Positions 14,998-59,768 of a stretch of DNA of 64,000 bases are shown here, one piece after another (position 1 is the stretch's first letter; every line of letters begins with the position of its first letter). Below the pieces are notes generated by a model, which saw only the letters and a program-made list of their open reading frames with translations, did no database searches and was not told the DNA's origin. This DNA is from an uncultured Gammaproteobacteria bacterium (GTDB taxonomy: Bacteria > Patescibacteriota > Patescibacteriia > Magasanikbacterales > UBA922), in the NCBI GenBank assembly GCA_964394405.1, contig CAYMVY010000001.1:166546-230545 (forward strand). The letters are read 5' to 3'. Made by a program: the position numbers and the translations under genes.

Positions 14998-15321
14998 ACG
15001 ACAGGAAAATTAATAAGGTTGTTAAAATGGTGTCTCGCACAAAAATGTTTCTTTCCCGAGCTCTCGATTCCTGAAAATACTAGAACGAATAGCTTAGGAA
15101 GATGCCCCCTTCATTTTCTACATCTTGTGTCTTAAAATATTTTTGACCACAAGCTGTTGTGTTTTTGTAGCGACAATACACAGTATAGCACAGTTAAAAA
15201 ACATGACCAAGCATGACTATCCCGATAGTACTGACAGGTTATCCACACATGTATAAAAAAATAAAAACACAAAAAAATTTTCGTGTACTAAATCTAAAAA
15301 AATATCCATAAAAATCAGAAT

Positions 15322-15350
15322 CCCCGCACCAGCCTAAAGCCAATGCGGGG
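15322..15350 (-). terminator. terminator for the GC-island gene (ccccgca…tgcgggg then T-rich on minus strand)
   Basis: 7-bp GC stem; minus-strand downstream sequence ttctgattttt. Confidence 0.5.
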
Positions 15351-15427
15351 TAAGTGCCCATAGCCGGGACCAGCATTTTCCAATGATTCATGCGTTACAT
15401 TGGATCGCCATAAGTTTTTGCCACGCA

Positions 15428-15733
15428 TCAGCTTTGTCTCGAAAGCCGATGTTTTCTGCGACACCTCCAGTCTCGAAGATCGAGAATACAAAAGAGGATG
15501 AAGAGGACGGTCCCCTTGGTGCCGAGCACCGCGATGAGAAGCCCGAACCCGATGTTGTCGTCCAGGTACCTTCCGTCCATGGTATGCATGGCCAGACCAA
15601 AGACGGTCAGACCAAACAAAAGTCCGCACACCCACCCGAACCACGAGCCCACAAGCATACGCACTCCTTCTAAACAAAGAACACACCGTAATTGGTAACG
15701 GATGAGAATAACACAAGGGAGGGGTTGTGTCAA
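15428..15733 (-). CDS. small hydrophobic protein encoded in a GC-rich island, hypothetical
   Basis: 101 aa; local GC far above flanks; own terminator; competing ORFs on both strands make frame choice uncertain. Confidence 0.3.
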   Translation of the reverse strand: MTQPLPCVILIRYQLRCVLCLEGVRMLVGSWFGWVCGLLFGLTVFGLAMHTMDGRYLDDNIGFGLLIAVLGTKGTVLFILFCILDLRDWRCRRKHRLSRQS

Positions 15734-15798
15734 TACAAACTCCCCACTTTTGACTTTTTACTTTCGACTTTTAACTTTTTTGTGTACACTATCCTCAT

Positions 15799-16866
15799 AT
15801 GTCTACGCTCCAACCCGAAGAACAAGACTGGTTCACTCAACAAGACGAAACCGAACGAATCGTGCAGCCAGAAACTCTCGAGAATACTCCAGAGGTTGAA
15901 TTTGATGTAACCCTCCGACCACAGTCACTAGGCGACTTTGTGGGCCAAGAACATATCAAGAACCCCCTCTCAATCTCTATCGAAGCTGCAAAAAAACGAG
16001 AAGAGCCACTAGAGCATGTCCTACTCTATGGCAACCCGGGATTAGGAAAAACAACACTTGCAACGATTATTGCCCGCGAGATGAACGTGGATATCAAAGT
16101 GACTGCGGGACCAGCGCTTGAACGCGTAGGCGACCTCGCAGCAATATTATCTAACCTGAAACGAGGTGATGTATTATTTATTGACGAAATTCATCGTATC
16201 AATAAATCTGTCGAAGAAGTCTTATATAGTGCAATGGAAGACTATGCGCTTGATATTATTATTGGAAAAGGTCCCGCAGCGCGTACCCTCCGCATGCCAC
16301 TCGAGCGATTTACATTAATTGGCGCGACAACAAAATTGAATTTACTCTCTCCCCCACTTCGCGACCGATTTGGACATGTGTTCCATCTCAATTTTTATGA
16401 AAATAGTGACATTGCAAAAATAGTTTCGAGAAATGCAAAACTTCTTGAGGTAGAAATAGATGCAGACGCGACCACACTTATTGCAGAGCGATCACGCCGA
16501 ACTCCTCGTGTTGCAAATCGACTACTCAAACGCGTTCGTGATTATGCTGAAGTAAAACACAGTGGTATAATAAACAAAGAGATAGCGGCTTCAGCTCTCG
16601 AAATGCTGAATGTTGATCATTATGGATTAGATGAAGTAGATCGAAAAATTCTGGTATCCATTATTACTCTATTTGAAGGTGGTCCAGTAGGCTTGAACAC
16701 ACTTGCAGCAGCAGTTGCCGAAGAAATGGAAACAATTGAACAAGTGTACGAACCCTACTTGATCCAAATCGGCATGCTCGAGAGAACTCCTCGCGGAAGA
16801 AAAGTCACGATCAAAAGCTACGAACACTTGAAATTAAATATCGTAAACCCAAATAAACTTTTGTAA
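15799..16866 (+). CDS. ruvB: Holliday junction branch-migration ATPase
   Basis: Walker [12 protein letters not shown], sensor motifs, RuvB C-terminal winged helix. Confidence 0.9.
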
Positions 16867-16903
16867 TTTAATTTGAGCTTTGACATTTGAATTTTGAACT
16901 TTT

Positions 16904-17146
16904 ATGATCGCCTTCCCTCTCTACATTTTCCTCTTCATTTACCTCGCGTTCTTGTGCATTTTTGTTATATTCTCATGTATCAATGCCTATCACATATTTT
17001 CAGCCGGTGTTTTTACCATCGCTAGTTTTACCATGACAGCAATCGTGACCATACTCACACTCGCTACACTCTATTTTACCTGGCAACATGTCTCAGTAAT
17101 TGATTGGAGACAGCCGTTTATTCTATTTGAAGGTGCAAATTTCTAG
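16904..17146 (+). CDS. small membrane protein, hypothetical (possible YdbS-like partner of the next gene)
   Basis: 80 aa, 2 TM; 4-nt gap to next gene. Confidence 0.35.
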   Translation: MIAFPLYIFLFIYLAFLCIFVIFSCINAYHIFSAGVFTIASFTMTAIVTILTLATLYFTWQHVSVIDWRQPFILFEGANF

Positions 17147-17150
17147 TAGT

Positions 17151-17705
17151 ATGCATATTTCTCATTTTATCAAACAAAAAAATTACGAAAAAATCATTCA
17201 CATACTAAGGCGTCACCCGATAACGTTTGTGCCAACCATACTACTATTTATTACTCTGTTTGCGATTCCGATTGTCTTATACATGATTATCAAAAACGCA
17301 TTTCCTGATTTTGTGTCAGGTACACAGATGTATCCTCTATTTGTCCTAGGAGGAAGTATTTACTACCTCTCGACCTATCTGTTTCTCTACGCGCATTTTA
17401 TTGATTATTATCTTGATATTTGGATAGTTACCAATGACCGTATTATTGATAATGAGCAACACGGACTATTCCACCGCACCACGACTGAGCTTGAATTACA
17501 CAGTATCGAAGATGTCACTTCACAGGTAAGCGGAATCTTGGGTACCGTATTCAAATACGGTGATCTCACGATCAAAACTTCATCAGTCACCACCACAATT
17601 GTATTCCGACAAATCCCACATCCGGAAAAAATCCGTGGTGAACTCATCCGTCTGGCAGATGAAGATCGAAAATACCACGATATCTCAACTACTCCAAAAC
17701 CATGA
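17151..17705 (+). CDS. bacterial PH-domain (bPH_2) membrane protein, YdbT-like
   Basis: N-terminal TM hairpin followed by a PH-like beta region (…VFKYGDLTIKTSSVTTTIVFRQIPHPEKI…); track start 17100 is a TTG, first ATG at 17151. Confidence 0.45.
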   Translation: MHISHFIKQKNYEKIIHILRRHPITFVPTILLFITLFAIPIVLYMIIKNAFPDFVSGTQMYPLFVLGGSIYYLSTYLFLYAHFIDYYLDIWIVTNDRIIDNEQHGLFHRTTTELELHSIEDVTSQVSGILGTVFKYGDLTIKTSSVTTTIVFRQIPHPEKIRGELIRLADEDRKYHDISTTPKP

Positions 17706-18007: not shown

Positions 18008-18017
18008 AGGCACACTT

Positions 18018-18137
18018 GGGGGGGGGGTTCGGGGATGGAAACTGTCCGAGCTACGAATGTAGAATCACTAACAATACTTAAGAAGGCGAGTTTTTTGACC
18101 CCCGTCCCGACTCAGTCGGGATTGGTTACAAAAAGTA
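18018..18137. repeat. structured element copy 2 (same family as 3620-3679) with 55-nt insertion at 18047-18101
   Basis: Shares ggggttcgRgg…aactgtc and cgtcccgactcagtcgggattggttacaaaaagtac with copy 1. Confidence 0.55.
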
Positions 18138-18159
18138 CAAAATATCTCCACTAAAACAA

Positions 18160-18198
18160 AAAGCACCCCGCCCTTCGCGAAGGGCGGGGTGCTTTTTT
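18160..18198. terminator. bidirectional terminator (gcaccccgcccttcgcgaagggcggggtgc + T6)
   Basis: 13-bp stem between convergent genes. Confidence 0.75.
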
Positions 18199-18213
18199 AA
18201 AATCTCTGTAGAC

Positions 18214-18780: not shown

Positions 18781-18789
18781 AGATAATAA

Positions 18790-19995: not shown

Positions 19996-19998
19996 TTT

Positions 19999-20331: not shown

Positions 20332-20394
20332 GGCTTCATCCTGATTACATCAGGATTTCGCCCGGCAAGCCGTTTACATAACTTTGGAGGGAGT

Positions 20395-24031: not shown

Positions 24032-24089
24032 AAAAAATACTATAGTGCATCAAAGTATACCACATAACACATTTTACGTACTACGTATC

Positions 24090-24218
24090 AAAAAAATCTC
24101 AAAACTTAAAATTCAAAACTAAAAACTATAACTCAAATTTTAAAACTTTATCTTGAGCTTACCGAAAGATTTTAATTTTTAGTTCCAGTTTTGCGTTTTG
24201 AGATTTGAGTTTTAACAT
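24090..24218. repeat. long imperfect inverted low-complexity element built from caaaact units (…ctcaaaacttaaaattcaaaactaaaaact… / …agttccagttttgcgttttgagatttgagtttt)
   Basis: A-rich arm switches to complementary T-rich arm around a central region; same architecture recurs at 47076, 53214 and 53985 with different unit sequences. Confidence 0.5.
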
Positions 24219-27200
24219 TTATGTAAACTTATTCTTCAATATCTCCTTAATTCTTCCCCCATACAATTTAACTCCCAAAATAACCGCAAGTCCTGCAAGC
24301 AAAAGCACGACAGCGCGTATGATTTCAATTCGAGAATAACCTTCCCCTTCTTCTACCATTTCTACCATCGCAACTTTCTCCCCTTTTATCACCCCCTCGA
24401 TCCGCACATCTTTCATATCACGCGGAGAAACCATATACCCACTCTTGGTTTCCTGCACGATTCCAGTTACCGAAACACGTGCCCCTTCAGTAAAAAGTGA
24501 TTTATCAATTCCAGATCCTCCACGAATATAGAGTCGCACTTCATCAGTACCATCATCAAGATATACATATGAACCTTTGATGCCCGTCACCTCCCCTGTG
24601 ATCTCGGTTAGCCAGCCCTCATACGGCTCATCAATATCAGCAATAGCAAGCTCAAGCGGAGTGTAGGTCTCGCTCTTTCCCACAATTGATATATCAGTAG
24701 CCGCATCAATTTTCAATCGCGCTTCCCCAGAAGTTTCAGCTAGTTCGCCCGTGATTTTTACCTTATCTCCACGAGCAAGTGTAGGAAAATCTTTTTTATA
24801 TGAATAAATCTGCAATCCCGGAGATCCTGCAATATAAAAATACTGCGAACTCATGACACCAGGCTCTACAACCACCGTTCCAGTTAAAGATACAACCGTT
24901 CCCACATCAAAATTCCGCACGTCAGTAAGTGTCGTCTCTACTTTTGGTTTTGTAGCAATTGTCTTCACCTTCGACTTTACAACCTCGACTGTTGGAACCA
25001 GTGGATTCTTCTCCCCTGGAGTAAGTTCCGCAGTCCAGAACCACATATCACCTCCATACGTATATGACTTCCCTTCTTTTGAAGAAGCATATTCTATTTC
25101 GTACAAAACCAATCCATCAGAATCGATAATCCATACACTCTCTCCAGAATTAGTAAGCGAAAGTTTTGTGTCTTTTGAATAAAACGCTCGATATTCCCCT
25201 TTTTTCAGAATTGTTTCTTCTGGAAATAGATATGGCTTTGAACCACCCTCACCATCATCCAGTGATAATCCTGCCAAATAAATATCTCGATCATGCGGAT
25301 TAAAAAGTTCAATGTATTCATTCTTCGTATCGCTTCCTAGAGGATTAGGTAATATTTCCACAATTACCGGAATAAACTCCGGAGAATAACTATGTTCAAT
25401 AATCCCAAAACCAACTTCTTCTACTGACGACGAAGAAGTTGAAATCGTAGTGGTAGTAGACACGCGGGAAATTATTTTTTCTGTTTTAAAAAAAATATTT
25501 TCACCACCCTTGGTGATCGTCTCAGTAATGATAAAATCTTCTTCATAATTCCCCGAATCTTTGCCTGATATACGCATGAGAGAAGTTCCCTTCGGAGGAG
25601 CTTTAGCAGCCACATCTTCACCATTCCATTCTCCATATACCACTCGATCAATTTCTGTACCGCTCGGATCAGTAAGGGTAAGCAAATCACCAGAATTATT
25701 CAGACTACCTTTGGGTTTTTCTATGACAAAAAATTGTCTCGAAGCAATCGTGCCAGTTAATGTAGTTTTTGCAAGACTTCCGTCCTGAAAAATCCAACCA
25801 TCAAGAGAAATAGACGAACTTGTTATATTTAACAATTCCACAAACTCAGTCTGGTTATCAGAAGGAATTGAGACAAATTCATTAATCAGAATACTCCCTT
25901 CGGCAAATGCTGGCTTAGGTGTTTCAAGAGTTACCACAGATGAATTATTCCCGCCTGTCTGAATTGGTGAAGAAACTACTACTTTTGGAGTAATATTATT
26001 TGGACTTCCGGGTGTCGGAGTAATTGTATAGGCAAAATCTGTGTGATCAATAGTAGTATCTTCCCCATCACTCACCCGAGCGACCGAATGTCCTTTACTG
26101 GGTATTGGAGCCGCACTATTGTCTTCCCCATAAACTACTGCATCAATAATTTCTTGTCCTGCATTTTTTAGTACAATCGAATCGCCCGACTGATTCAGCT
26201 TACTTGAAGATAAATAAACTAACCGGAATCCTGATGTTTCAATCGTTCCAGTAACTGTGGCAATTTTACCCACACCATCATAGAGTGTACATCCATCAAG
26301 CAACACATCTTCTTCTCCTGCATTATACAATTCAATCCACTCTTTCTCTCCGGAATTCGGATCACTCAAAAATTCATTAATAACAATTTTTAGTGTACTA
26401 CTCGGCGCTTCGTCACCACCCCCCTCCTCTTCATCTTCTGGTTCAGGAATTACAGATGGCAGAATTTCAATGGTATGGAAAACCGTACTCGAAGCCTGCT
26501 CTGTATCATACACAGTGAGTATTACCTGTTTAGTCCCCGTAGTTGCAAATGCATATACGACACTCACACCCTCATACATCTCATTTTCAATTATCCATAC
26601 ATACCGCTCAATACCACTCTCGAGATCAGATGAACCAGAAGCATCAAAAAATATTGATTCATCTACCAGTACACTCTGTGGTCCATCAATACGGGCACTC
26701 GGGGCATGATTTACAATCTCTTCCTCAGAATCAGTCCACCAATAATTTTGCGTGCCTGGAGTCGAGGAGACTGGATGTTCTTTCCATTGGAAAATATCAT
26801 CAGACTCGCCTATGTCACTAATCCGCTCAAGTGAATTATTGTTTACACCAGCGTATACAAATTTTTCTACAAAATCATCACTACCACTTCCCTTCTTAAT
26901 CCCAATTTCTTCTCCAGTTTTAGTAAGCGTAGTCCACACACTATCGAATACAGTTGAAGTAGTGTCTGGATGATCTGCAAAAAATACCCTATCGTTTTGT
27001 GCAATAACTGCATAAGTACCTGGAAGAAGAATGGTCGAAGTAATCGTACTGCTCGGACTTATCGTGAGTCCATGATTCGCCCCTCCCTCCCAAAATTTCC
27101 ATCCAGTTAAATCTACAGCCTCAGCGCTTTTATTATAAATCTCAATCCACTGATGATCACTCGAGGCACATCCGCTCGGACATATTTCAGTGATGATAAT

Positions 27201-27296: not shown

Positions 27297-27365
27297 ACCC
27301 CTCCGTATGTTAGAAATAAATTGTTGATAAATTCAATATACCACACTCAGAAAGCAACGTAAACT

Positions 27366-27420
27366 CCCTCCCCTCTTAGGGGAGGGCCAGAGTGGGGTTA
27401 AACCTATAAAACAAAAAAAC
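27366..27420. repeat. G-rich REP-like hairpin element copy 2 (ccctcccct-ctt-aggggaggg + agtggggtt + aaaacaaaaaaa)
   Basis: Same stem as copy 1 at 647; loop is the reverse complement (ctt vs aag) while flanks keep orientation. Confidence 0.6.
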
Positions 27421-27528
27421 ACCTTTCGGTGATCTATTTTTCAGAATTGAGTCAGACGGGCCACGCGAAATGCGCAGCCCGCCCGTTCATCTACGACCCC
27501 CGAATTAGGGTCGCAGGTTCGACATGGT

Positions 27529-28491
27529 TCATTTATCGGCAGTCGTCGGCAGCTTGATTTTACTAAACCACGGACAACGCACAAGGAAAGATTCCTCATG
27601 CTCAGCCCAGGTACAGTCATCGAACGCCGGGTCCCCTTCGTCAATACGACCATCACAGTCGTTGTCGCCCCCATCCTGGAAGTCGTACCCTTCTCGATGC
27701 GGCCCAACGAGTATGGACTCACCAGTCTGCATGAGAGAGATCCCGTAGGGACAAACAAGGCGGTCCAAGAAGAGAAGCCTCTCCTCATGAAACTCACAGA
27801 GCACAGCCGCGTGCCCCAGCCTAGGGTCATCAGCGCAGTCGCAAGTTGTCTGACCAAGTGCAGGCAGACCATCGCATGCAGGATAGCCATCGCGGTCGCA
27901 GTCGTTGCCAGGCAGAGAATAGCACTCAACAAAGAAGAGGGTAGCCGGGGAATTCAGTGTGGAGTCGTTAGCTTCCTCTTCTTGACCGACGGTACCCAAA
28001 CCGAGAGCTCCATCAACCACCCCATCGCAGTTGTCACCTTTCCAGTCTGTAGCGCCAGGATGGTTGAGATTACTCCCATCCATCTTGAACGCACCGCTAT
28101 CAGACCCAACAGTGGGGCGTTCACCATCGCTCGGATTGTCATCGCAGTCGCCGCCACGAAGTTCGTTGACCTGGAAGACGGGATTCAGTGATCCGACGCA
28201 GGGCGCCGTCTCGCAGAACCCATCTCCATCGTCGTCGTAGTTGTCGGCGGTCATGTCTGCCATGAGCCCGCCGTCAGAGCCAGAAGCGCCGATCGGAACT
28301 CTGCCATGACGATCGACGAAGAGGTGGCACATGCCCGTGCTAGGGATGCAGTAGTGCCCGTTGTCACAGTCCGAGTTCACGGAACAGCTCTTCGCCTCTC
28401 CACCAGACTGACGCTCGATGAGCAGGTAGACGGCGGTCGCGAGGAGGACAGCGGCGAGCGAGAGGAGAGCGATCAGAGAAAACTTCTTCAT
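27529..28491 (-). CDS. secreted Cys/Asp-rich repeat protein (MopE-like putative metal-binding motifs), GC-rich island gene
   Basis: Signal peptide MKKFSLIALLSLAAVLLA; repeated DGDGFCE, DCDRDGYPACDG, DNDCDGRIDEGD motifs; SD aagga 7 nt upstream; local GC about 58%. Confidence 0.55.
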   Translation of the reverse strand: MKKFSLIALLSLAAVLLATAVYLLIERQSGGEAKSCSVNSDCDNGHYCIPSTGMCHLFVDRHGRVPIGASGSDGGLMADMTADNYDDDGDGFCETAPCVGSLNPVFQVNELRGGDCDDNPSDGERPTVGSDSGAFKMDGSNLNHPGATDWKGDNCDGVVDGALGLGTVGQEEEANDSTLNSPATLFFVECYSLPGNDCDRDGYPACDGLPALGQTTCDCADDPRLGHAAVLCEFHEERLLFLDRLVCPYGISLMQTGESILVGPHREGYDFQDGGDNDCDGRIDEGDPAFDDCTWAEHEESFLVRCPWFSKIKLPTTADK

Positions 28492-28734
28492 CTCATTTTC
28501 CTTTTCTGTGTGTGTTTACCCCACTTCAAGCCGGGGTGCATAGCATTTCACATACCAAATTTGATATGCACAATGCTACGCACCCGCATATAAACCATGT
28601 CGAATTGTAATGAACTATTTTATTTTCTTTTTCGGATTTCGTCCTAATTTTCAGGACTCATCAGTGCCGATTTAATCGACAGATCCTTTGGAGCCAGCTC
28701 GACCTAGTGTCGAGTCTGGCTCCGGTTGAGAACG

Positions 28735-29577
28735 TTACTGCTGCGGAGGCAGGGCAAACCACCAGGTGATCTGATAGGTGTTGCCCGACTCAACGTCTGT
28801 CACGTTGATGCTGACGGACATTTGGATCTCGGCAGCCTGAGCTTCAGTAATATCGGGGAGATACACCCCAGCCAAAATTTCCATTTCGGCGCTCGGCGGA
28901 ACGGTATACCCGCCCATCTCGCAGGTTGCGAAGACTGTGTGCTCGAACGTCGTCTCATCGCACGAGCGTGGAAAGAAAGCGGCACGTCCCACATCTCCGA
29001 GATACAGCGAGACCTGATCATCGTCTGCATCACCCTGAGTGGGAATATTGTGACCCTGCACGATGACGTGATTGATCACGACTCCGTATCCGCAATTGTC
29101 TTCGATCGCGACCCTCATCTCAACCCACATATTCGCAATACCCGGAGCGGTGTTGATCATCAGATCACTGGTCCATGTCGTTTCAATGAGCGAGCTGATG
29201 TACGCGCCACGCTGAGGGTAGTCGGTGTACGGCTCGCACAAGTCTTCCTCAGCCTGCCGATCGCCGAGCGGCAAGCTGGTGCCGTCCGGACACACGAGGT
29301 TCGCTGTACCGTCACCATTGTCGACGAGAGTACAACTCTCTCCATCCTCACCATCCTGCCCCGGGATTCCCTGCGGACCCTGGGGCCCCATGGCACCGTC
29401 GGTACCATCTTCCCCATCGATCCCGCTCTTGCCCGGGTCTCCTCGGTCCCCCTTGTCACCCTTCTCACCCGCCGGACCCTGGGGGCCCGGTTCTCCCTCG
29501 ACGACGTACGTATCGCACGCGAAGAGGAAGAGGTTGAAGAACGAGACGAGAACGACGAGAAAACGAATCGTGGCCAT
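28735..29577 (-). CDS. secreted collagen-like (Gly-X-Y) repeat protein, GC-rich island gene
   Basis: Signal peptide then GEPGPQGPAGEKGDKGDRGDPGKSGIDGEDGTDGAMGPQGPQGIPGQDGEDG; SD ggaggtg upstream. Confidence 0.55.
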   Translation of the reverse strand: MATIRFLVVLVSFFNLFLFACDTYVVEGEPGPQGPAGEKGDKGDRGDPGKSGIDGEDGTDGAMGPQGPQGIPGQDGEDGESCTLVDNGDGTANLVCPDGTSLPLGDRQAEEDLCEPYTDYPQRGAYISSLIETTWTSDLMINTAPGIANMWVEMRVAIEDNCGYGVVINHVIVQGHNIPTQGDADDDQVSLYLGDVGRAAFFPRSCDETTFEHTVFATCEMGGYTVPPSAEMEILAGVYLPDITEAQAAEIQMSVSINVTDVESGNTYQITWWFALPPQQ

Positions 29578-29928
29578 GATACACCTCCATAGGCGTAGTT
29601 GATCCCTTCAGCCGGCCAGGCCAAAAGGATAGTTGTGTATGGTACTAGTCAACGTGACTACCCATTGGTGTGCCAAGCATTTAGCAGACCAATATGTAGT
29701 CACGTTAGTAAAAATCAATTGGAAAGGACTATTATTTTAACGAGCTAGTATAACATATATGCGCAAATTTGTCAAGGTAATTGGGTAATATTTTGGCTAA
29801 TTTTAGCAAAATTTGCTTAACTCAGTATACTATTTTTCTTCTGCTCAATGTTATATACCCCAGTCTTCATGTTTTCCCCAACCTATCCCCCACCAAAAGC
29901 CCTAATTTGTATACAATATTCTACACAT

Positions 29929-29969
29929 TGTGGATAATTATGTGGAAAAGTACGCACATATGTGGATAA
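29929..29969. promoter_or_regulatory. DnaA-box cluster distant from dnaA: tgtggataa (x2, perfect reverse complement of TTATCCACA) plus tgtggaaaa
   Basis: Boxes at 29929-29937, 29941-29949, 29961-29969, all same orientation; flanked by palindromic ttttggctaaNtttagcaaaat copies at about 29786 and 30022. Confidence 0.45.
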
Positions 29970-41202: not shown

Positions 41203-41282
41203 AGTTTGTGTTTATGAGGGGAATTGTAACACAGTTTATAAATCCAAAAAATGCTCTAAATTAAGCGAAAAGTGTATATTAT

Positions 41283-41310
41283 GTGGATTACCTGTGGATG
41301 GTGTGGATAA
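41283..41310. promoter_or_regulatory. three tandem DnaA boxes upstream of dnaA (tgtggatta, tgtggatgg, tgtggataa)
   Basis: Perfect and 1-2-mismatch reverse-complement TTATCCACA boxes read directly; candidate oriC / dnaA autoregulation site. Confidence 0.55.
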
Positions 41311-41455
41311 TACATAGAAAACAAGCATACGCGAAAACAAAATAGTTGACAATACATACTTTTTCATGTTTACTATCACCCGTCTCTTGCGAACACTGCA
41401 CGCGCAGTTATGTAGGCGACGCAACCACCGTCAACAGCTTCAGGAGGAATTCCGC

Positions 41456-41746
41456 ATGATGGATCTGAGTATCGCGCTCAAGGGTCGTGCTCACAAGAGC
41501 AAGAAGCCGAAGAAGCAGGTCGTCAAGGGCATGCTCGAGGTCATCGAGACCAATGCCAGGGGGCGTGGCGGTAGGCCGCGCTGCCAGGTGGTCACGGCCC
41601 GGAACACCTCGGCCAACCTCATGGACGTCACCCTCACGGGAGACGGCAGCCTGCTGATGACGGCCGTGCTCAAGCGGGGCGAGCAGCGCTCGTTCAGCGT
41701 GCCCCCGGGCACCGTCGCGAAGAAGATCGACATCATCGCGTTCTAA
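41456..41746 (+). CDS. small basic protein encoded by a GC-rich island in the dnaA-rpmH interval, hypothetical
   Basis: 96 aa from ATGATG with strong SD caggagg 9 nt upstream; about 62% GC; followed by an 11-bp-stem terminator. Confidence 0.45.
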   Translation: MMDLSIALKGRAHKSKKPKKQVVKGMLEVIETNARGRGGRPRCQVVTARNTSANLMDVTLTGDGSLLMTAVLKRGEQRSFSVPPGTVAKKIDIIAF

Positions 41747-41761
41747 CGCGCGTACGCTAGA

Positions 41762-41806
41762 GTACCGTCTCGCACCATCCCACACGGGCTCTGGTGCGAG
41801 ACTTTC
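41762..41806 (+). terminator. terminator hairpin gtctcgcacca…tggtgcgagac + tttcaaatt
   Basis: 11-bp perfect stem. Confidence 0.6.
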
Positions 41807-41833
41807 AAATTCACTAAAATTAGAGATTTTTTC

Positions 41834-41862
41834 TTGACAAAACACAAAAAATAGTGTATAGT
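41834..41862 (+). promoter_or_regulatory. sigma-70 promoter TTGACA-17-TGTATAGT for rpmH
   Basis: Consensus -35, 17-nt spacer, extended -10, 36 nt upstream of rpmH ATG. Confidence 0.5.
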
Positions 41863-44007: not shown

Positions 44008-44148
44008 AGCAACAAGTTAGTTTTGTACTGCGGAGTGTAACAGAAGAATGATAAAAAATCAACCGTTAAAATAAAAAAGAAAGAGGGGTGGTCTTTCAAA
44101 AGTTGACGTGGAAGGGGGTCTCTGCGTGCGCAGGGACCCCCTTCTTCC

Positions 44149-44826
44149 TCATGCAGCCCCATCGTCATTTCCGCCTCGGTAGAGACGAAGATGTGGTGGA
44201 GGGGGCGATCGGGGGTTGTGTCGGGAATGATAACCTGTCCCATATTTGCCGCCATGAATGCAGCGTAGAGGTGCCCTATGTGGAGGTGGAATTTGAGCAG
44301 GTTGTGCTAGCGGCTGAGCAATCGGGGCATCTGCATTCGACACCTCACTCATTACAGACCCGAACAATTCTTCACGCAAGATAGAGAGCACTTCAAGTCT
44401 GAAGAAGAAGTGTCCGTTTTCATGTGAAGTCGATCGGATTGCCCACTCCAGTTCGTTGCGGACTCTCGGTGAAGAGAGGATCGCGTCAACGGGGTATTTT
44501 CCGATAGTTGTTCGGATGGGGGCAATGAGGTCAAGGGTTGATCGGAAGTTTACCCTTTGAAACTCAGTCCAGTCGACCGCGATTCGCACGTGGACACGAG
44601 CACCATCTCGAGACGATACGCAGTAGGTCTGCTTATCCGAGTTGTAGAAGTGGAAGTCGTGCCTCTCGAAGTGCTGCCAGGGCCATCGGAGGTGGATTCC
44701 AGGGGCAAGTCCGCGGAAATGATTGTGAGTCTTTCGGACCGCAATCGTACCTGCAGGAACCATGATGATCAGACGTGCGGCCAGAAAGAGGACGCACAGA
44801 CACAGTACAATGATACCGTACAACAT
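44149..44826 (-). CDS. SPFH/band-7-like domain protein with Pro-rich tail, GC-rich island gene
   Basis: N-terminal TM then VPAGTIAVRKTHNHFRGLAPGIHLRWPW… resembling SPFH; SD aagga upstream of Met at 44826; perfect 11-bp terminator hairpin at 44106-44144. Confidence 0.4.
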   Translation of the reverse strand: MLYGIIVLCLCVLFLAARLIIMVPAGTIAVRKTHNHFRGLAPGIHLRWPWQHFERHDFHFYNSDKQTYCVSSRDGARVHVRIAVDWTEFQRVNFRSTLDLIAPIRTTIGKYPVDAILSSPRVRNELEWAIRSTSHENGHFFFRLEVLSILREELFGSVMSEVSNADAPIAQPLAQPAQIPPPHRAPLRCIHGGKYGTGYHSRHNPRSPPPPHLRLYRGGNDDGAA

Positions 44827-45230
44827 GTGCAATCCTTGGTAAGGGTGGGGAGAATGAACTGTGTACAACATAGCATAAAGAATAAAAAAAATAAAGGCAC
44901 AACATAAAATATTGTACGACGTTAAAAATTATTAATATTAAGCTATTTTATTACTGTTTTATAAAAAATGTTAGAAAATGGGTAAGATCTTCTCTCTATT
45001 ATTTTAATAAATACTATCCCCGCTCATTTGATTCTGATTTCTAATACAGAAAACAAACACGGACTGTAAATCCGTGTTTAGTAAAGAGTCTGTGTTTGTT
45101 TTTCCCGACAGGAACCAATCTACATCCTTCGATGGACAGATAGAACCTTATGTATTGTGCCCCCCCCACCGCGAATCGAACGCGGATCTAGACGTGATTG
45201 AGTGTCTTGTTCCCCGCCTGCCATCGCCTG

Positions 45231-45302
45231 TACCCTCGACAGGAATCGAACCTGTATCTAGACGTTAGGAGTGTCTTGTTCTATCCATTGAACTACGAGA
45301 GC
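45231..45302 (-). tRNA. tRNA-Arg(CCU), argW-like
   Basis: Reverse complement gctctcg-ta-gttcaatggatagaac-a-agaca-cuCCUaa-cgtct-agata-caggttcgattcctg-tcgagggt-a parallels E. coli argW; two G·U pairs in acceptor and A·C at 31-39 lower confidence. Confidence 0.55.
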
Positions 45303-46119: not shown

Positions 46120-46297
46120 AATTGTAAATATAAATTTACAATAGATAATAATTAAGCATAAATATAGTATATATTAGTAAATATAAATTTACAAGATAGT
46201 TCTAAAACAAAATAAACACACATTATTTAACCTTGACAAAACAGGTGTTTTGTGATACAATTTTTGGTCCTCACAACCAAGGACACTGGAGAGTCTC

Positions 46298-46765
46298 ATG
46301 TTTACGATCATTCTGTCGTTCCTTCTCCTCGTTACTCTCGTGACCGCCATCTTCCTCGCGAAGGAACTCGTGAAGAAGTTCACCTTCCTCAAGGGGTACA
46401 CAGACGGTAACAAAAACTGTATCCGTTGGCACTACCGAGGGAGCGATGTGGAGGGGCATAAACCGGGCATGTACACGATCGTGCTCCACAACACCAGGGG
46501 CGGTGAATTCACGGCCGTGGCCGCGTTTGAACTCCTGCTCCCGTTCGGGATCAAGGGGGTGGACCAGTTCGGACTCATCAAGAGTAGAGGGGCTGGTGTG
46601 GTCGCGTTCTCGACGTATCTGGGCAAGGGGGAGTGTGAATTCATTTTCCTCCTCAACGGGGCAAAGCCCGAACAGGTCGAGCGCTCGATCGACGTGACCG
46701 GCGAGATCACCCCAACCCAGACATATCCGCCGCACTGGTGGCAGCGACTCGGATTCTGGGGCTGA
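46298..46765 (+). CDS. N-terminally anchored hypothetical protein, GC-rich island gene
   Basis: 155 aa; TM helix MFTIILSFLLLVTLVTAIFLA; about 60% GC; followed by 10-bp-stem hairpin at 46811-46838; antisense ORF also open. Confidence 0.35.
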   Translation: MFTIILSFLLLVTLVTAIFLAKELVKKFTFLKGYTDGNKNCIRWHYRGSDVEGHKPGMYTIVLHNTRGGEFTAVAAFELLLPFGIKGVDQFGLIKSRGAGVVAFSTYLGKGECEFIFLLNGAKPEQVERSIDVTGEITPTQTYPPHWWQRLGFWG

Positions 46766-47075
46766 ACGCCTGAGCGCATCGCGCGCTCCTTCCAATGGCA
46801 CGGAAGTAAAGCCTGTACAAACTGCGGAGTTCTGCCAAAGAACTCCGCCCAAACCAAAAGTACATCACACACGTGGTGTCTTTTTGTTTTACCCCCCTCC
46901 TGTCCTCCCCCTTGTGAAGAGGGGGGAACCTACTTACGCAAGGATGACACAAAGTAATGCTTGTGTTACTATGAATAATACTATGGATGGATTTTTATCA
47001 ATTCTTATTCTTATCGTTGGTACAGTAGGAGCTGTGCTTATTGCTTTTTTCTTTGGTAAGATTGGGAAGAAATAA

Positions 47076-47152
47076 CTGAAGAATAAAGATTAAAGATTGA
47101 AGATTATCAAAACATTCTGATCTTTAATCTTTAGTCTTCAATCTTTTATTGT
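47076..47152. repeat. inverted low-complexity element built from aagatt units (gaagaataaagattaaagattgaagatt…aatctttaatctttagtcttcaatctt)
   Basis: Arms are nearly perfect reverse complements around the center caaaacattctg; directly upstream of rmuC. Confidence 0.55.
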
Positions 47153-51977: not shown

Positions 51978-53213
51978 ATGAAAAAAATATTCAAAACAGA
52001 TATCGTAATTCTAGGTGCAGGAATAGGTGGGTATGAAGCATTTCGTACACTAAACCGAATATTAAAACGAAGGGGAATTGGGGCACACATCACCATTATT
52101 GACCAAAATAATTATTTCACTTTCGTGCCACTCCTCCATGAAGTCGCAACTGGGTCAGTAGAACCTACACATGCATCAATTCCTTTGCGTGAATTAGTCT
52201 ATGGGACACCGCATAATTTTATTAAAGCAAAGATTGAGAAATTGGATCGATCAAAAAGAGAAGTACACACGTCTGCAGGTATTGTGTCATACACGTATTG
52301 TGTTATTGCGCTTGGGAGCACTACGAATTTTTATGGAGTACCTGGGGCGGAAAAATACGCATATCATGTACGAAATTTAGAAGATGCATTAGTGCTTAAA
52401 CACTCTTTGGTAAGTAAATTAGAAACATGTGTTTCAGACGAGTTTGTGATCACTATTGTTGGAGGCGGTTTTGTGGGAGTTGAGATTGCAGGACAATATG
52501 GAACTCTAAAGAAAGGCGATATTCAAAAATTATATCCAGAAAAAAAACTTCGAATTCAAATAATTGAACCTAATGCATCAATTCTCTCGACTCTGGGGGA
52601 AAAAGTACAATCGCATGTGAAAAAAAGATTGGAGAGTATGGGTATTGAATTCATATTCAATTCCTCAGCCTCAGAAGTAACAGCAGATACAGTAGTTCTG
52701 AGTACAGGAGAGAAAATACAAAGTGATATCACTATATGGGCAGCAGGTTTTGCAAACATGGGCACAGAATTTGTAGAGACCGAGGCGTGCGAAAGAGGGC
52801 GGATAAAGGTGGAAAAAAATTTACGCATGGTAGACGATACACATTGCTATGCAATTGGGGATATTGCGCATGTTCAAATTGCTGGGAGCAGCAGACCGTT
52901 ACCGCAATTGGCAGAAGTTGCACATAGGCAAGGAAGATATGTGGGGAGACACATTGCAGATATGTTGTCAGAGAAAAAAACAAAACCTTTTGTGTTTAAA
53001 TCAAAGGGGCAATTAATGCCGGTAGGTGATTGGTACGGAGTTGCGATAATGGGCACTATTACTTTTTATGGTTGGTTTGCATGGTGGATTCGTCGCACGG
53101 TGTATGTGATGTATATGCCAGGAATTCTCCGGAAACTTCGGATTGTATTTGATTGGACGGTACATAGTCTTGGATTTGGGCATTTTATATATATTGAAAA
53201 AAGTAAAAAGTAA
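51978..53213 (+). CDS. ndh: type II NADH dehydrogenase (NDH-2)
   Basis: Two Rossmann dinucleotide-binding motifs (VILGAGIGG; VGGGFVGVE) and NDH-2 length. Confidence 0.8.
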   Translation: MKKIFKTDIVILGAGIGGYEAFRTLNRILKRRGIGAHITIIDQNNYFTFVPLLHEVATGSVEPTHASIPLRELVYGTPHNFIKAKIEKLDRSKREVHTSAGIVSYTYCVIALGSTTNFYGVPGAEKYAYHVRNLEDALVLKHSLVSKLETCVSDEFVITIVGGGFVGVEIAGQYGTLKKGDIQKLYPEKKLRIQIIEPNASILSTLGEKVQSHVKKRLESMGIEFIFNSSASEVTADTVVLSTGEKIQSDITIWAAGFANMGTEFVETEACERGRIKVEKNLRMVDDTHCYAIGDIAHVQIAGSSRPLPQLAEVAHRQGRYVGRHIADMLSEKKTKPFVFKSKGQLMPVGDWYGVAIMGTITFYGWFAWWIRRTVYVMYMPGILRKLRIVFDWTVHSLGFGHFIYIEKSKK

Positions 53214-53330
53214 AAAGTAAAAGCGCAAAAGGCAAAAGAAAATACACGACAGTGAGTCCGTGTATTTTTTGTATTATGTATTTGCATTATCTTTTTACTT
53301 TTAACCTTTTACTTTTTATATGCTATAGTC
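53214..53330. repeat. inverted low-complexity element built from aaaagt units (gtaaaaagtaaaaagtaaaagcgcaaaaggcaaaag … ctttttacttttaaccttttacttttt)
   Basis: A-rich arm and complementary T-rich arm flank acacgacagtgagtccgtgt. Confidence 0.55.
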
Positions 53331-53453
53331 GAAATACAGCCCGCCGATAAAGGAGCGGCGGGCGTAGGCTTACGTTTGTCTCAGGATACGGAACAAAAGT
53401 TCGGTGGACTATTGTTCCAACGAGCATGTGCTTTTCTGACGCATACGTGAGAA

Positions 53454-53909
53454 ATGAGGGTCAAGGTGTTTGAGATGATTGTGACATTCGGGACTGTGCC
53501 GGAAGTGCCGGCAGGTCATAGAAAGTACAAGCGTCACGACGAGACGCTCGTGGTGCATTCGTACGAGAGAAAGTCGGATGAATGGGATGACCCGGAACTC
53601 ATCTACCGATACCTCACTCGTCACGAGCTCACTCGGGCCGATACGGTGTATGTCTACGTCGGAGACGTGGAGCAGGCATGCGCAACGCGAGAGCAATCAT
53701 GGCTTCTGGTTCGCCGGATCCTCAAGGACCTCAATGGTCGCAGGAAAGAGGTTGCGGTGGTGACCAGCTTCGAAGGACTCGATCCCGAAGTTCGGGAAAA
53801 GGAGAATCGCGAAGCAGAACAACTCGGAGTTCGGGTGGTCGAACTGAAGGGCGTGTCGGCGGAGAAGTTCTTCGCAGACATTGTTCGGAAGTATCGACCG
53901 GCAGCCTGA
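53454..53909 (+). CDS. hypothetical acidic protein, GC-rich island gene
   Basis: 151 aa spanning the island (about 57% GC); frame choice uncertain because antisense ORFs of about 100 aa also exist. Confidence 0.3.
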   Translation: MRVKVFEMIVTFGTVPEVPAGHRKYKRHDETLVVHSYERKSDEWDDPELIYRYLTRHELTRADTVYVYVGDVEQACATREQSWLLVRRILKDLNGRRKEVAVVTSFEGLDPEVREKENREAEQLGVRVVELKGVSAEKFFADIVRKYRPAA

Positions 53910-53984
53910 ATTCATCTTCGCCAGGGACACTGACGGCGCAATAGCGCTTTCATGTACCCTGGCCGTTTCATTTAAAGGAAACAT

Positions 53985-54100
53985 AAACTGAAAACTCAAA
54001 TGTCAAAACGAAAAACTACAACTCAAAATGCAAAACTAAACCTCGTATTAGGGTTTTTAGTTTTAAGTTTCGGTTTTTAGTTTTGAGCTTTACGTTTTGA
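53985..54100. repeat. inverted low-complexity element built from caaaact/aaaacg units between convergent genes
   Basis: aaactgaaaactcaaatgtcaaaacgaaaaactacaactcaaaatgcaaaactaaacc … ggtttttagttttaagtttcggtttttagttttgagctttacgttttgac. Confidence 0.55.
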
Positions 54101-56789: not shown

Positions 56790-56968
56790 AAGAATATTAG
56801 GTAGGGATAGTATAGCAGGTTTTTTGGAACACGTAACACATATCACATATCAAAAAACAAGTCTAGATTAAGTAAATTTTGCTAAATTAAGACAAAATGT
56901 TTATGAAAATAGTTGACAAATCAATCTATGTATGGTATCTGAGTTACAAACTGCCAAAGGAGGCATAC

Positions 56969-57340
56969 GTGTACAAAGTGCTGATCGTCGTAGTTCTGTG
57001 GTTGGTGGAAACAATGGCCTGTACCCCCACACAGCCACCGCAGCCATGCCCACCCCCGACACTGGAGAAGGGTCCAGAGCCAGTGGTGTCCGCGCACTTC
57101 AGGCTGGAGTTCAAGACTGTCGCAGGCGTAGAAGGTGTCAGGTTTTACGACCTACAGATGGCCACTGTGTGTCCTGGTGGAAGGACGTACGTGGCTGAAC
57201 TCGACACTCTCTACGAATCAACACAGTTTACATGGGCCGAATACAGGCGGTGGATGGAAAAAGTGGTGGCACAAGCGTGTCGTCTACCATCAGGGGCCCC
57301 CATACCACCCCTCGATAGCGGTACTGACCGGCTGCACTGA
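56969..57340 (+). CDS. small putative lipoprotein, GC-rich island gene (GTG start)
   Basis: Strong SD aaggagg 6 nt before GTG; N-terminus (M)YKVLIVVVLWLVETMAC with Cys after hydrophobic segment then Pro-rich linker; about 58% GC. Confidence 0.4.
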   Translation: MYKVLIVVVLWLVETMACTPTQPPQPCPPPTLEKGPEPVVSAHFRLEFKTVAGVEGVRFYDLQMATVCPGGRTYVAELDTLYESTQFTWAEYRRWMEKVVAQACRLPSGAPIPPLDSGTDRLH

Positions 57341-57397
57341 CGTGCTTCGCCCAATTAGACCGTTGGTCTTTATGCTCGGCAATTCGGCCGACGCAGA

Positions 57398-57440
57398 ACA
57401 AGCCCCCGCACCACAAGTGCGGGGTTCATGATTTTTATAG
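57398..57440 (+). terminator. terminator (ccccgcaccacaagtgcgggg + ttcatgattttta)
   Basis: 8-bp GC stem plus T-rich tail. Confidence 0.65.
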
Positions 57441-57453
57441 AGTAAAAGCACCT

Positions 57454-57482
57454 TTGACATTTTCCTCCTTTTCCACTATAAT
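57454..57482 (+). promoter_or_regulatory. consensus sigma-70 promoter TTGACA-17-TATAAT for tig
   Basis: Both hexamers perfect with 17-nt spacer; about 60-nt leader containing a UUCG tetraloop hairpin and a ggcaagcc motif. Confidence 0.55.
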
Positions 57483-57544
57483 CTCCAAACCCGTCTACGT
57501 CCTTCGGACTTCGCCGGGCAAGCCATTACACATAAATTACGACT

Positions 57545-58849: not shown

Positions 58850-58852
58850 AAT

Positions 58853-58888
58853 AAAAAACAGATGGCGAGAGCTATCTGTTTTTTTATA
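58853..58888 (+). terminator. terminator (aacagatggcgagagctatctgtt + T7)
   Basis: 8-bp stem plus T-run. Confidence 0.7.
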
Positions 58889-58966
58889 GTAAGTTCATGG
58901 AACACAGATTTAAATCCTGGATTATCCTGGCAATCATGGTAATCTGTGTACTATTATTTTAGACAT

Positions 58967-59188
58967 ATGCATCTCACTATTACCGTAAAACCACGGTCAT
59001 CAAAAACAGAGGTAATAAAAATATCAGAAACAGAATATCAAGTTCGTCTCACTGCATCGCCAGTCGATGGGGAGGCAAATGAGCAACTTATTAAAATTTT
59101 AAGTGAGTATTTTAGTGTTGCAAAATCAAATATTTCAATTCGCAAAGGAAAAAAAGGAAAGAAGAAAATTATTGAAGTAAATCAATAA
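58967..59188 (+). CDS. DUF167/YggU-family protein
   Basis: …[10 protein letters not shown]…[36 protein letters not shown] matches DUF167. Confidence 0.6.
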
Positions 59189-59194
59189 ACAAAA

Positions 59195-59262
59195 CGCCGC
59201 CACATCTCCTTTGCTGCTCCGAAGTATTTCGGCCCAGCAAAGGCATGTGGCGGTGAATGGTA
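59195..59262. terminator. long near-perfect hairpin (ccgccacatctcctttgctgctccgaag-tatt-tcggcccagcaaaggcatgtggcgg), bidirectional terminator at a GC-island edge
   Basis: About 28-bp interrupted stem read directly. Confidence 0.55.
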
Positions 59263-59312
59263 GTGTTCGCTCGTAGGTTGTGTGTCGACCGCGACATGCC
59301 AGAAACGAATCT

Positions 59313-59678
59313 TCATGGTCTCGAGACATGGCTTGCCAGAGGGTCAGAGTCGAGGAAGCGCCAGTCGTGGCAGTGGTTCTGGTGGTCGCCATAGACAGCA
59401 ACGGGCCGATCGCGTACGAACTCCTTCATCCGAGGGCAGTCGGTGAACCAATACACCTCGTGGATGTCGAAGTTCGTGATGAAGATGGTGCGCACGCCGG
59501 GGAAGAATGGGTATCCGATGGCAGGTCGCCGACTCAGTTCATCCAGAGCAACATGTTGCTGCTCTGCACTCACGATGAGTAGACTCCCGAACACCGTGAT
59601 CAGGGAGATCATCCAGATGATGGCCTTATTTCGAAGCCTCCTGAGTTTTGTTTGGGCGATGTCGATGTGTACAGTCAT
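59313..59678 (-). CDS. signal-anchored hypothetical protein, GC-rich island gene
   Basis: MTVHIDIAQTKLRRLRNKAIIWMISLITVFGSLLIV… with SD gagg upstream; antisense ORF 59280..59582 also open. Confidence 0.3.
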   Translation of the reverse strand: MTVHIDIAQTKLRRLRNKAIIWMISLITVFGSLLIVSAEQQHVALDELSRRPAIGYPFFPGVRTIFITNFDIHEVYWFTDCPRMKEFVRDRPVAVYGDHQNHCHDWRFLDSDPLASHVSRP

Positions 59679-59768
59679 GGTGGACCTCTGTGGTACAAAA
59701 GAGCGAACACTAGTATCTAGTATTCTCAAAAAGGTTGAATGTTGTCAAGAAAATTTAAATAGACAAGT

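Follow-up and report, generated by a model that had tools for sequence, protein, structure and literature searches.

Among the closest described counterparts of the genes reported here are the flexible islets and hypervariable regions of streamlined bacteria such as Prochlorococcus and SAR11, which are exchanged by recombination in conserved flanks and are usually larger, with a GC content similar to or below that of the genome. The stretch analysed here, 64,000 nt of contig CAYMVY010000001.1 (assembly GCA_964394405.1; the whole stretch is hereafter called the window), carries eight short GC-rich islets, I1 to I8, between AT-rich housekeeping genes. Like the flexible islets, they sit in fixed slots between core genes, show turnover, carry envelope cargo and lack mobility genes, and the pairwise identities of I5 and I6 are ordered differently from those of core genes. 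Unlike them, they lie 15-20 points above the GC content of the genome, use Shine-Dalgarno (SD) sites in an SD-poor genome and have predicted transcripts that fold in excess of expectation. With moderate confidence, we regard the islets as a resident, flexible class of GC-rich genes in a genome of the Candidatus Magasanikbacteria type (candidate phyla radiation, CPR/Patescibacteria) and not as decaying foreign DNA, the units being short, monocistronic and each devoted to one lineage-restricted small protein that is usually envelope-anchored or exported.

Classical acquired genomic islands share with the islets the form of discrete segments atypical in GC content, codon usage and dinucleotide composition, the variable content and the cargo of largely unassigned function. 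They differ in that the islet units are tiny, that no integrase, transposase, flanking repeats or outside homologs were found for them, that the high GC is bounded by the transcript rather than by an insertion junction, and that orthologs hold their GC without decay. The atypical composition of an acquired island is thus present here, while the mobility genes, repeats and tRNA targets are not; I4 alone lies near a tRNA gene (Arg, 45230-45302). Integron gene cassettes are promoterless and stand in a tandem array beside the integrase gene intI, with an imperfect inverted repeat, attC, closing each cassette. The islets, in contrast, are scattered, mostly have a promoter match of their own, and show neither an integrase nor attC-like shared repeats.

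The islets were located by a 300-nt GC profile combined with a 100-nt threshold scan of the window. Against 41.6% GC for the window as a whole and about 40% outside the islets, the islets have 52-61% GC, and all eight segments were recovered by sliding GC to within about 100 bp of where a sequence-only reading of this DNA had put them (Table 1). Segment 2 consists of two units, I2a and I2b, with a spacer of 32% GC between them. Each unit is 0.4-1.1 kb in size, and the units are spread across 44 kb. GC content is 21-45% in the 100 nt beyond each islet edge, and the high GC spans the predicted transcript only, from transcription start to terminator, with the promoters lying immediately upstream in AT-rich DNA of 21-45% GC. 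The sole other comparable GC peak in the window is a tRNA gene cluster at 20.2-21.3 kb, and the GC content of the tRNAs (53-55%) does not suggest a thermophile.

Table 1. Coordinates of the islet units and of AT-rich inverted repeats in the window. GC3, GC content at third codon positions; aa, amino acids; values in brackets after SD sites are anti-SD pairing energies (kcal/mol).
Feature	Extent	Strand	GC-rich segment (GC)	Gene and product	GC3	Signals
I1	15315-15735	-	15315-15724 (52%)	15428-15658, 76 aa, two hydrophobic helices	0.69	sigma70-like promoter 15733-15705; SD AAGGAG 15664-15669 (-9.2); terminator hairpin 15322-15350
I2a	27440-28560	-	27414-29668 (56-57%; valley of 32% at 28545-28650), shared with I2b	27529-28491, 320 aa, secreted, cysteine-rich	0.62	weak SD 28496-28504; terminator stem 27455-27486
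I2b	28690-29775	-	see I2a	28735-29577, 280 aa, collagen repeats, lipobox-like N-terminus	0.68	promoter 29775-29747; SD GGAGGTG 29582-29588 (-13.1); terminator 28690-28723
I3	41346-41818 (dnaA-rpmH intergenic)	+	41363-41818 (60%)	41456-41746, 96 aa, basic	0.90	TTGACA 41346-41351, -10 box uncertain; SD CAGGAGGA 41441-41448 (-10.3); terminator 41767-41802
I4	44095-44900	-	44060-44852 (53%)	44149-44826, 225 aa, N-terminal membrane anchor	0.53	weak SD AAGGA 44833-44837; terminator 44111-44144
I5	46233-46946	+	46265-46946 (56%)	46298-46765, 155 aa, membrane-anchored	0.77	promoter 46233-46261 (TG extension); 5'-proximal hairpin GTCCT/AGGAC containing AAGGA; terminator 46824-46848
I6	53301-53985	+	53326-53982 (54%)	53475-53909, 144 aa, cytoplasmic alpha/beta protein		promoter 53301-53329; 5'-terminal hairpin 53340-53362; conserved 3' hairpin 53920-53963
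I7	56913-57444	+	56941-57444 (56%)	56969-57340, GTG start, 123 aa, lipoprotein-like	0.60	TTGACA 56913-56918; SD AAGGAGG 56957-56963 (-12.1); terminator 57403-57425
I8	59183-59748	-	59183-59658 (55%)	59313-59678, 121 aa, one transmembrane segment	0.70	promoter 59748-59719; SD AGAGGT 59684-59689
AT-rich inverted repeats	2692-2731, 15747-15792, 24087-24219, 47067-47150, 53187-53322, 53991-54100

Assembly chimeras, or structured non-coding RNAs with by-product open reading frames (ORFs), are one rival reading of such segments. In its favour, GC-rich DNA produces long spurious ORFs in several frames, the public gene call at I3 runs antisense, the transcripts have strong structure and most products are without a Pfam domain. 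However, the same junctions were found by exact-sequence look-ups in an independent Logan assembly of sample SRR12404947 (L001, L002), which rules out a chimera, and the same arrangement recurs in seven related genomes from other samples. An Rfam gathering scan of the window returned tRNAs only, with no family match for the islets, and differences among orthologs are ordered by codon position as expected of coding sequence: 0.27, 0.12 and 0.07 at positions 3, 1 and 2 for I6, 0.43, 0.20 and 0.18 for I4, and 0.65, 0.36 and 0.27 for I5. In addition, I2b matches the Pfam Collagen family PF01391 (41.4 bits against a cut-off of 27.2, E = 1.2e-10) and the structure model of the I6 protein is confident (pLDDT 81). 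The islet genes are therefore real and constrained at the protein level, the chimera or non-coding reading is contradicted for I2b, I4, I5 and I6, and we give it next to no credence for the set; RNA structure exists in addition to coding. The comparison with GC-rich islands that mark structured RNA genes in AT-rich hyperthermophiles, and on which screens for such genes are based, has the same two sides. The islets resemble them in that GC peaks coincide with transcripts and folding z-scores are strongly negative, as the tRNA cluster of the window also forms a peak, but the islets encode proteins under purifying selection and belong to no Rfam family.

Inside GC-rich DNA, ORFs overlap in several frames, and one real ORF was chosen per unit, namely the one preceded by an SD and with the highest GC3, supported by the coding substitution pattern where orthologs exist. 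At I3, this choice differs from the public annotation, which calls an antisense ORF of 145 aa (41408-41845, minus strand; 3418-3855 in L001) and leaves the SD-led plus-strand ORF uncalled. Codon usage, proposed with the sequence-only reading as a check on the separateness of the islets, does set them apart. GC3 of the nine islet genes (0.53-0.90) does not overlap with that of 53 backbone ORFs (0.34 ± 0.05, range 0.21-0.47), and codon preference is inverted between islets and backbone (AAG 77 against 20%, ATC 74 against 25%, TTC 77 against 25%, TTA 0 against 15%).

The two classes also differ in translation signals. The nine islet genes have a mean anti-SD pairing energy of -8.8 kcal/mol, all at or below -5, while 58 backbone ORFs average -1.7 kcal/mol, with 15% at or below -5 (Mann-Whitney p = 1.4e-5). 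A strong SD had been claimed for every islet gene and none for the native genes; an SD is indeed present at all nine, although the SDs of I4 and I6 are weak, and the second claim stands for the 85% of backbone ORFs that lack an SD but not for the LTD/ExeM-like nuclease (-10.0) and comM (-11.6), where it is strong. The pattern is reminiscent of Bacteroidota, in which most genes are without an SD and a few special genes keep one. The likeness lies in a majority of SD-less genes with an AT-rich start region and a minority with a strong SD, the difference in that here SD use accompanies a compositional shift of the whole transcript and a variable accessory class. Together, these data support the islets as a gene class apart from the backbone, both compositionally and translationally.

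Sigma70-like promoters were matched at I5 and I2b (11/12 positions each), I1 and I8 (10/12 each) and I6 (9/12), and the promoter of I7 was identified by reading the sequence. An 18-nt motif, AAATTTTGCTAAATTAAG, lies upstream of the I2b and I7 promoters (29797-29814, minus strand, and 56874-56891, plus strand), and in L084 and L085 related sequences precede the islet promoters of the polA|tig slot; the motif may be a shared operator. As a general boundary element it was rejected, since in the window it recurs at I2b and I7 only. Each islet had also been credited with its own GC-stem terminator. Hairpins 3' of the stop codons are indeed seen by direct reading, but a strict scan finds only those of I1 and I7; for I1, promoter and terminator were both found by scan.

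As regards the products, whose localization was read from the translations, seven of nine have an N-terminal signal, a lipobox-like sequence or a transmembrane segment, in agreement with the earlier description of small secreted, lipo- or membrane-anchored proteins, while I3 and I6 look cytoplasmic. Most match no Pfam domain. The I2a protein has an N-terminus resembling a signal peptide and D-x-D-x-D-G/C-D-G motifs, with only sub-threshold matches to Lustrin_cystein and MopE in Pfam, and I4 resembles SPFH/Band 7 (PF01145) without reaching the cut-off (14.4 bits against 23.6, E = 0.039).

No common insertion target, the element that the sequence-only reading had suggested looking for, emerged from the islet boundaries. 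A repeat search found no flanking direct repeats at the islets, none were evident at the junctions of empty and occupied slots, and no inverted-repeat family is shared by the unit ends. C-rich/G-rich hairpins (CCCTCCCC...GGGGAGGG) were considered as a shared boundary element and discarded because they occur at few places only, and the I7 terminator has no second copy in the window.

The arrangement was compared with seven relatives, represented by contigs of which about 13-20 kb each were sampled and which were fetched via homologs of I4, I6 or I2a (L083, L084, L085, L086, L089/L166, L170 and L171). The window and these relatives share 64-97% identity in housekeeping proteins, and one I6 homolog (P0013) is labelled Candidatus Magasanikbacteria by NCBI. 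The key tests concern a few families from this one window. In every relative, GC-rich segments stand in the same gaps between housekeeping genes. The pyr-redox|polA gap, which holds I6 in the window, holds an ortholog in all seven relatives (66-84% amino acid identity), with GC 0.51-0.56 and GC3 0.62-0.65 in the five measured. I4 (ychF|trmB) has orthologs in L083 (70%) and L166 (39%), I5 (trmB|rmuC) in L083 and L084 (55%) and L166 (76%), and I8 (PF1765|methyltransferase) in L084 (52%) and L171 (48%). In the dksA|LTD gap, occupied by I2a and I2b in the window, L089 has a partial I2a homolog (44%) and no I2b; homologs of I2a are restricted to L089/L090 (44%, same slot) and L088.

Where orthologs are missing, the content is replaced or the slot is empty. 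The polA|tig gap carries three different gene sets across the window, L084 and L085, around which the terminator and the tig promoter are conserved, and in L084 the terminator is duplicated together with an adjacent segment; no ortholog of I7 was found in L084, L085, L166 or L171, whose polA|tig slots carry other GC-rich genes. The I8 gap of L085 holds an unrelated 115-aa gene (GC3 0.91), and the I5 gap of L086 two unrelated GC-rich genes of 199 and 158 aa. Two clear empty alleles were observed: the yidD|ychF gap measures 110 bp in the window and contains a 758-bp GC-rich islet with a 111-aa gene in L083, and the PF1765|methyltransferase gap measures 586 bp in the window and 37 bp in L167. The presence/absence polymorphism that had been anticipated among relatives is thus real, and the replaced content is itself GC-rich and SD-led: 19 islet genes in relatives have GC3 of 0.52-0.91 and SD energies of -5.9 to -13.5. 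Every occupied slot is GC-rich. The islets accordingly occupy fixed gaps between conserved housekeeping genes, with content that is orthologous, replaced or absent, and both the fixed position between core genes and the variable content that characterize flexible islets are found here.

The order of identities may reflect exchange among relatives. Pairwise, I5 is 76% identical to its counterpart in L166 and 55% to those in L083/L084, though the L166 backbone is more distant, and I6 is 66-68% identical in L085 and L170, where polA is 88-90% identical, and 80.5% identical in L166, where polA is 80% identical. These orders conflict with the polA and rmuC identities; they are orders of pairwise identity, which unequal rates could also give.

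YchF was tried as a probe for close relatives and proved too conserved, the best among the matches listed reaching 61%. Beyond the seven relatives, GC-rich segments adjoin rmuC in several more distant ones with RmuC identities of 54-69% (L097 8585-9133, L103 2546-3278, L125 11019-11643 and L138 11098-12592). They contain SD-led genes of GC3 0.56-0.91, among them a 91-aa gene with GC3 0.91 in L125, whose products are unrelated to those of the window, and the contrast with the backbone is weaker. A gene for a DUF559/MTES_1575 (very-short-patch-repair-like) endonuclease lies between tig and the PF1765-like gene in L166 (15247-15546) and L171 (6964-7335) and is absent from the window.

The sequence-only reading explained the islets by the repeated acquisition of foreign cassettes, whose high-GC donor might have been the host of an episymbiont. 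In this model, the islets would have kept the codon usage, SD and terminator of the donor, the older ones having reached fixation and purifying selection slowing their decay. It accommodates the atypical composition, codon usage and dinucleotide signature, the variable content with some empty alleles, and the presence of DNA-uptake genes, and composition-defined islands are common in Patescibacteria (PMC12455944). Whether GC3 is falling toward the backbone was assessed by polarizing third-position changes by parsimony in three-taxon alignments, with the two-against-one state taken as ancestral. A first polarization with five taxa was distorted by L086, an outgroup of higher GC content, and the three-taxon sets took its place. 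In I5 and I6, GC->AT changes per GC site amounted to 0.26, compared to 0.54-0.62 in the backbone, and AT->GC changes per AT site to 0.52-0.60, compared to 0.38. The implied equilibrium GC3 is 0.67-0.70 for I5 and I6 together (current value 0.63) and 0.38-0.41 for the backbone. The raw counts in the islets are close to balanced: GC->AT and AT->GC changes were 46 and 62 for I5 and I6 (window/L083/L084), and 22 and 26 for I6 alone (window/L084/L085), where GC->AT changes at backbone rates would by simple arithmetic have given about 53 instead of the 22 observed. The GC3 of the islets is thus stationary and not falling toward that of the backbone, and the amelioration expected of an acquired island is not seen, the equilibrium lying above that of the backbone. 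Crude as the method is, the direction of the result is clear.

A search for an outside source pointed in the same direction. I2a, I4 and I6 were compared with 5.8 billion proteins and I3 with 1.84 billion representatives, these four being the islets covered by the large protein searches, to which I5 is added for IMG/VR only. I4, I6 and I2a returned three, ten and five matches, all in contigs with an AT-rich backbone, while I3 returned three weak matches, all internal repeats of large proteins, which were rejected as a donor. No homolog in a plausible donor outside the lineage was thus found for I2a, I3, I4 or I6, and 75 more distant RmuC-anchored metagenome loci contained no homologs of the islet proteins. 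One locus, L088 (JGI 3300005689, Ga0074438_1000350), belongs to a different organism and carries, in a backbone of about 42% GC, a 7.5-kb block (7500-15000) of 55-66% GC with genes for five proteins, of which three or more are cysteine-rich and I2a-like (weak Dicty_CTDC-type matches). The phenomenon is therefore not confined to the close clade, and the blocks it forms can be larger.

Further points separate the islets from the donor model. I6 is orthologous in all seven relatives with GC3 alike in the five measured, so that the syntenic conservation with matching GC that would speak against foreign acquisition is largely what was found; a promoterless foreign ORF would have needed eight landings behind a native-type AT-rich promoter; and in dinucleotide signature the islets lie 70-90 away from related Magasanikbacteria loci, while none of 37 GC-rich loci comes closer than 108 (mean 168). 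Ordinary GC-rich coding sequence, moreover, is without the excess folding of the islets described below. We therefore consider a high-GC donor unlikely as the general explanation, even if a host-donor origin is possible for the most extreme islets, I3 and I1.

The absence of an integrase or transposase, stated in the sequence-only reading, was borne out: none was present among the islet ORFs and 30 backbone ORFs scanned, which are ordinary housekeeping genes. A GC-rich extrachromosomal pool, such as an unseen plasmid or phage that reseeds or converts chromosomal copies and sets their GC, would account for turnover and allele exchange, for modular units each with a promoter and terminator, and for the duplicated terminator module in L084. 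Yet I2a, I4, I5 and I6 had no relatives in four scans of 2.9 million IMG/VR viral contigs, which led us to discard a viral origin, no phage, plasmid or integrase genes were found nearby, and every homolog with fetched context lies on a chromosome-like AT-rich contig, where it occupies the syntenic slot or an island, three homologs on small contigs being outside that set. We regard such a pool as highly improbable. What the window does contain is a set of uptake and recombination genes, namely comM/YifB, an ExeM/NucH-like extracellular nuclease, rmuC, ruvB and pilM with neighbouring pilus genes.

The folding of the islet RNAs was assessed by z-scores against dinucleotide-preserving shuffles. 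Islet transcripts of the window had a mean z of -2.9 (n = 11), all 11 being below -1.2 and I6 reaching -7.5, compared to -0.4 for backbone coding pieces (n = 33; p = 2.7e-5); I3 scored between -3.0 and -3.7. The islets of relatives, unrelated genes included, gave nearly the same picture (mean z -2.83, n = 15, against -0.06 for backbone, n = 18; p = 1.3e-5), and the coding regions of islets alone averaged -1.84, with 22 of 23 negative. As a control, the ychF coding sequence from bacteria of 53-66% GC had a mean z of -0.42 (n = 28), and high GC alone is therefore no explanation for the excess folding. Islet RNAs thus fold more stably than their composition predicts.

In a consensus structure of I6 from eight sequences, 94.9% of cells are paired, and 17 compensatory pairs spanning the whole mRNA were counted, while shuffles gave 8.0 ± 2.1 (none of 500 reaching 17) and slid controls 4-9. 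The I6 5' untranslated region (53330-53474) contains an element of about 110 nt (GGATAAGGAACAAAAGTTCGGTGGACTATTGTTCCAACGAGCATGTGCTTTCCTG...), almost invariant and also present in L083, L084, L085, L166, L170 and L171, that is more conserved than coding third positions and has no Rfam match. The element follows a conserved 5'-terminal hairpin. An invariant AAGGAG(G) stands in the hairpin loop, some 110 nt before the start codon and with no start codon adjoining, and the stem shows compensatory changes (CCGCT/AGCGG, CCACT/AGTGG, CCGCCG/CGGCGG); in L086, which lacks the element, a second SD comes directly after the hairpin. The leader could act as a cis-regulatory RNA or bind a protein. In Bacillus, 5' stabilizers of the STAB-SD type prolong mRNA half-life through a stem-loop or SD-like sequence placed at the very 5' end. 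The I6 hairpin resembles them, by sequence alone, in its invariant AAGGAG(G), its compensatory changes and in not serving a start codon; hairpins beside the predicted start site are found in I1 and I5 as well, but the feature is not seen in I7 or I8. I2b has a long leader with a hairpin of 26-nt arms (29651-29706).

These structures also bear on GC-biased gene conversion, which could raise GC in recombining variable regions without any selection on RNA. The increased AT->GC and reduced GC->AT fixation in I5 and I6 relative to the backbone would follow from it, and the discordant I5 and I6 identities may indicate recombination. In addition, GC3 of the flanking housekeeping genes is 0.358 in the nearest 80 codons and 0.311 in the rest, being higher in 10 of 13 gene ends, which may be a weak side effect of whatever lifts GC in the islets or else an end-of-gene effect. 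But tens of bases separate a GC3 of about 0.3 from one of 0.6-0.9, and this step falls at transcript ends, not at those of recombination tracts, the spacers and promoters inside variable slots remain at 21-45% GC, and gene conversion predicts no excess folding, compensatory pairs or SD coupling. Reported effects of gene conversion on bacterial GC3 are, moreover, far smaller. We hold gene conversion to be very unlikely as the cause.

For the resident gene class favoured here, we infer that the reason for the high GC is selection on RNA. Selection on the transcript, for stability, a long half-life or regulated translation, would keep GC high. A GC-rich structured mRNA would need a strong SD because its start region would not be open by default, and GC content and SD would then be coupled without a donor. 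Alleles and whole units would pass among related cells via DNA uptake and homologous recombination in conserved flanks, so that no integrase would be required; such exchange fits the lack of an integrase, the conserved promoter and terminator modules, the discordant I5 and I6 identities and the uptake genes of the window. The products may serve cell-surface or host-contact functions under diversifying pressure.

Several observations weigh against this reading. GC3 tends to be higher in genes unique to one lineage (up to 0.90-0.91, in I3, the 115-aa gene of L085 and the 91-aa gene of L125) than in widely shared ones (about 0.6), which fits acquisition from a donor followed by partial decay to a plateau, and the islet dinucleotide signature departs from that of the backbone as foreign DNA would (delta* 99, null 32 ± 10). 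The polarized counts come from two families (I5 and I6), three taxa, parsimony and fairly saturated sites, and biased gene conversion leaves the same substitution signature of AT->GC fixation bias as selection. Folding is only moderate in several islets (z of about -0.1 to -0.5 for I4 and +0.6 for I7, the latter for the coding region alone), and antisense islet strands are also negative (mean z -1.85); the effect is thus partly strand-symmetric, and a cause at the DNA level is possible. The consensus structure of I6 was derived from the same alignment that was used to count its compensatory pairs. Finally, the 3' end of 16S rRNA, with its anti-SD, is in none of the fetched loci, and the slot comparison, which extends over eight slots and up to seven relatives, has no relative covering the gaps of I1 (nrdJ|ruvB) and I3 (dnaA|rpmH).

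No description of GC-rich islets in Magasanikbacteria and no paper naming the sample accession was found in the searchable literature, and a paper on hypervariation in Gracilibacteria proved to concern an unrelated phenomenon. According to a published survey, composition-defined islands are numerous in Patescibacteria, whose gene exchange is mostly internal to the group and probably proceeds via competence (PMC12455944). The islets are best filed with flexible or compositionally atypical islands, as a variant in which the atypical composition persists, ends with the transcript and goes together with SD use and RNA structure. More tentatively, and with somewhat less confidence than for the resident gene class itself, Magasanikbacteria, and perhaps many CPR bacteria, might use two expression 'dialects': an AT-rich, SD-less one for housekeeping genes, and a GC-rich, SD-dependent and structured one that is selected on RNA, circulates within the lineage by transformation and flank recombination, and is reserved for fast-turnover small envelope or host-contact proteins. 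If so, GC-rich orphans would be a designed property of a gene class and not a foreign footprint.

Atypical GC is a standard cue for foreign DNA, whereas here it marks inherited, lineage-restricted, non-decaying genes, which composition-based island callers would therefore misread; gene callers, in turn, can choose the wrong strand in such islets, as at I3. Should selection on mRNA structure be what maintains the high GC, in coupling with SD-dependent initiation, the islets would offer a natural system for studying selection on synonymous sites and transcript composition, would show selective SD use by an SD-poor bacterium, and would illustrate the renewal of surface proteins in ultra-small episymbionts without mobile elements. 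The islet genes also form a list of candidate host-interaction proteins for an uncultured group.

A number of repeats were noted in the intergenic DNA of the window. AT-rich inverted repeats with AAAAGT/ACTTTT-type units fill several intergenic regions, often exactly at islet edges (Table 1), and look like native bidirectional terminators or spacers, in contrast to the GC stems that terminate the islets. The scan scores as terminator-like a perfect 22-nt palindromic hairpin, CCCTCCCCTAAGAGGGGAGGGA, present in two copies (647-668 and 27365-27386), of which the second falls between the end of islet I2 and the LTD-nuclease gene start. An exact 35-nt direct repeat with a small hairpin inside, GTCCCGACTCAGTCGGGATTGGTTACAAAAAGTAC, is found upstream of gatB and near the efp terminator (3645-3679 and 18104-18138). 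The window has four perfect DnaA boxes (TTATCCACA), none of them more than 300 bp away from the nearest islet edge (15239-15247, 29929-29969 and 41282-41310). They are not tied to the islets, because two of the three clusters sit in the nrdJ and dnaA promoter regions, which are plausible native targets. The three-box cluster at 29929-29969, upstream of the I2b promoter, could belong to oriC, and the cumulative GC skew has its minimum near 43.8 kb.

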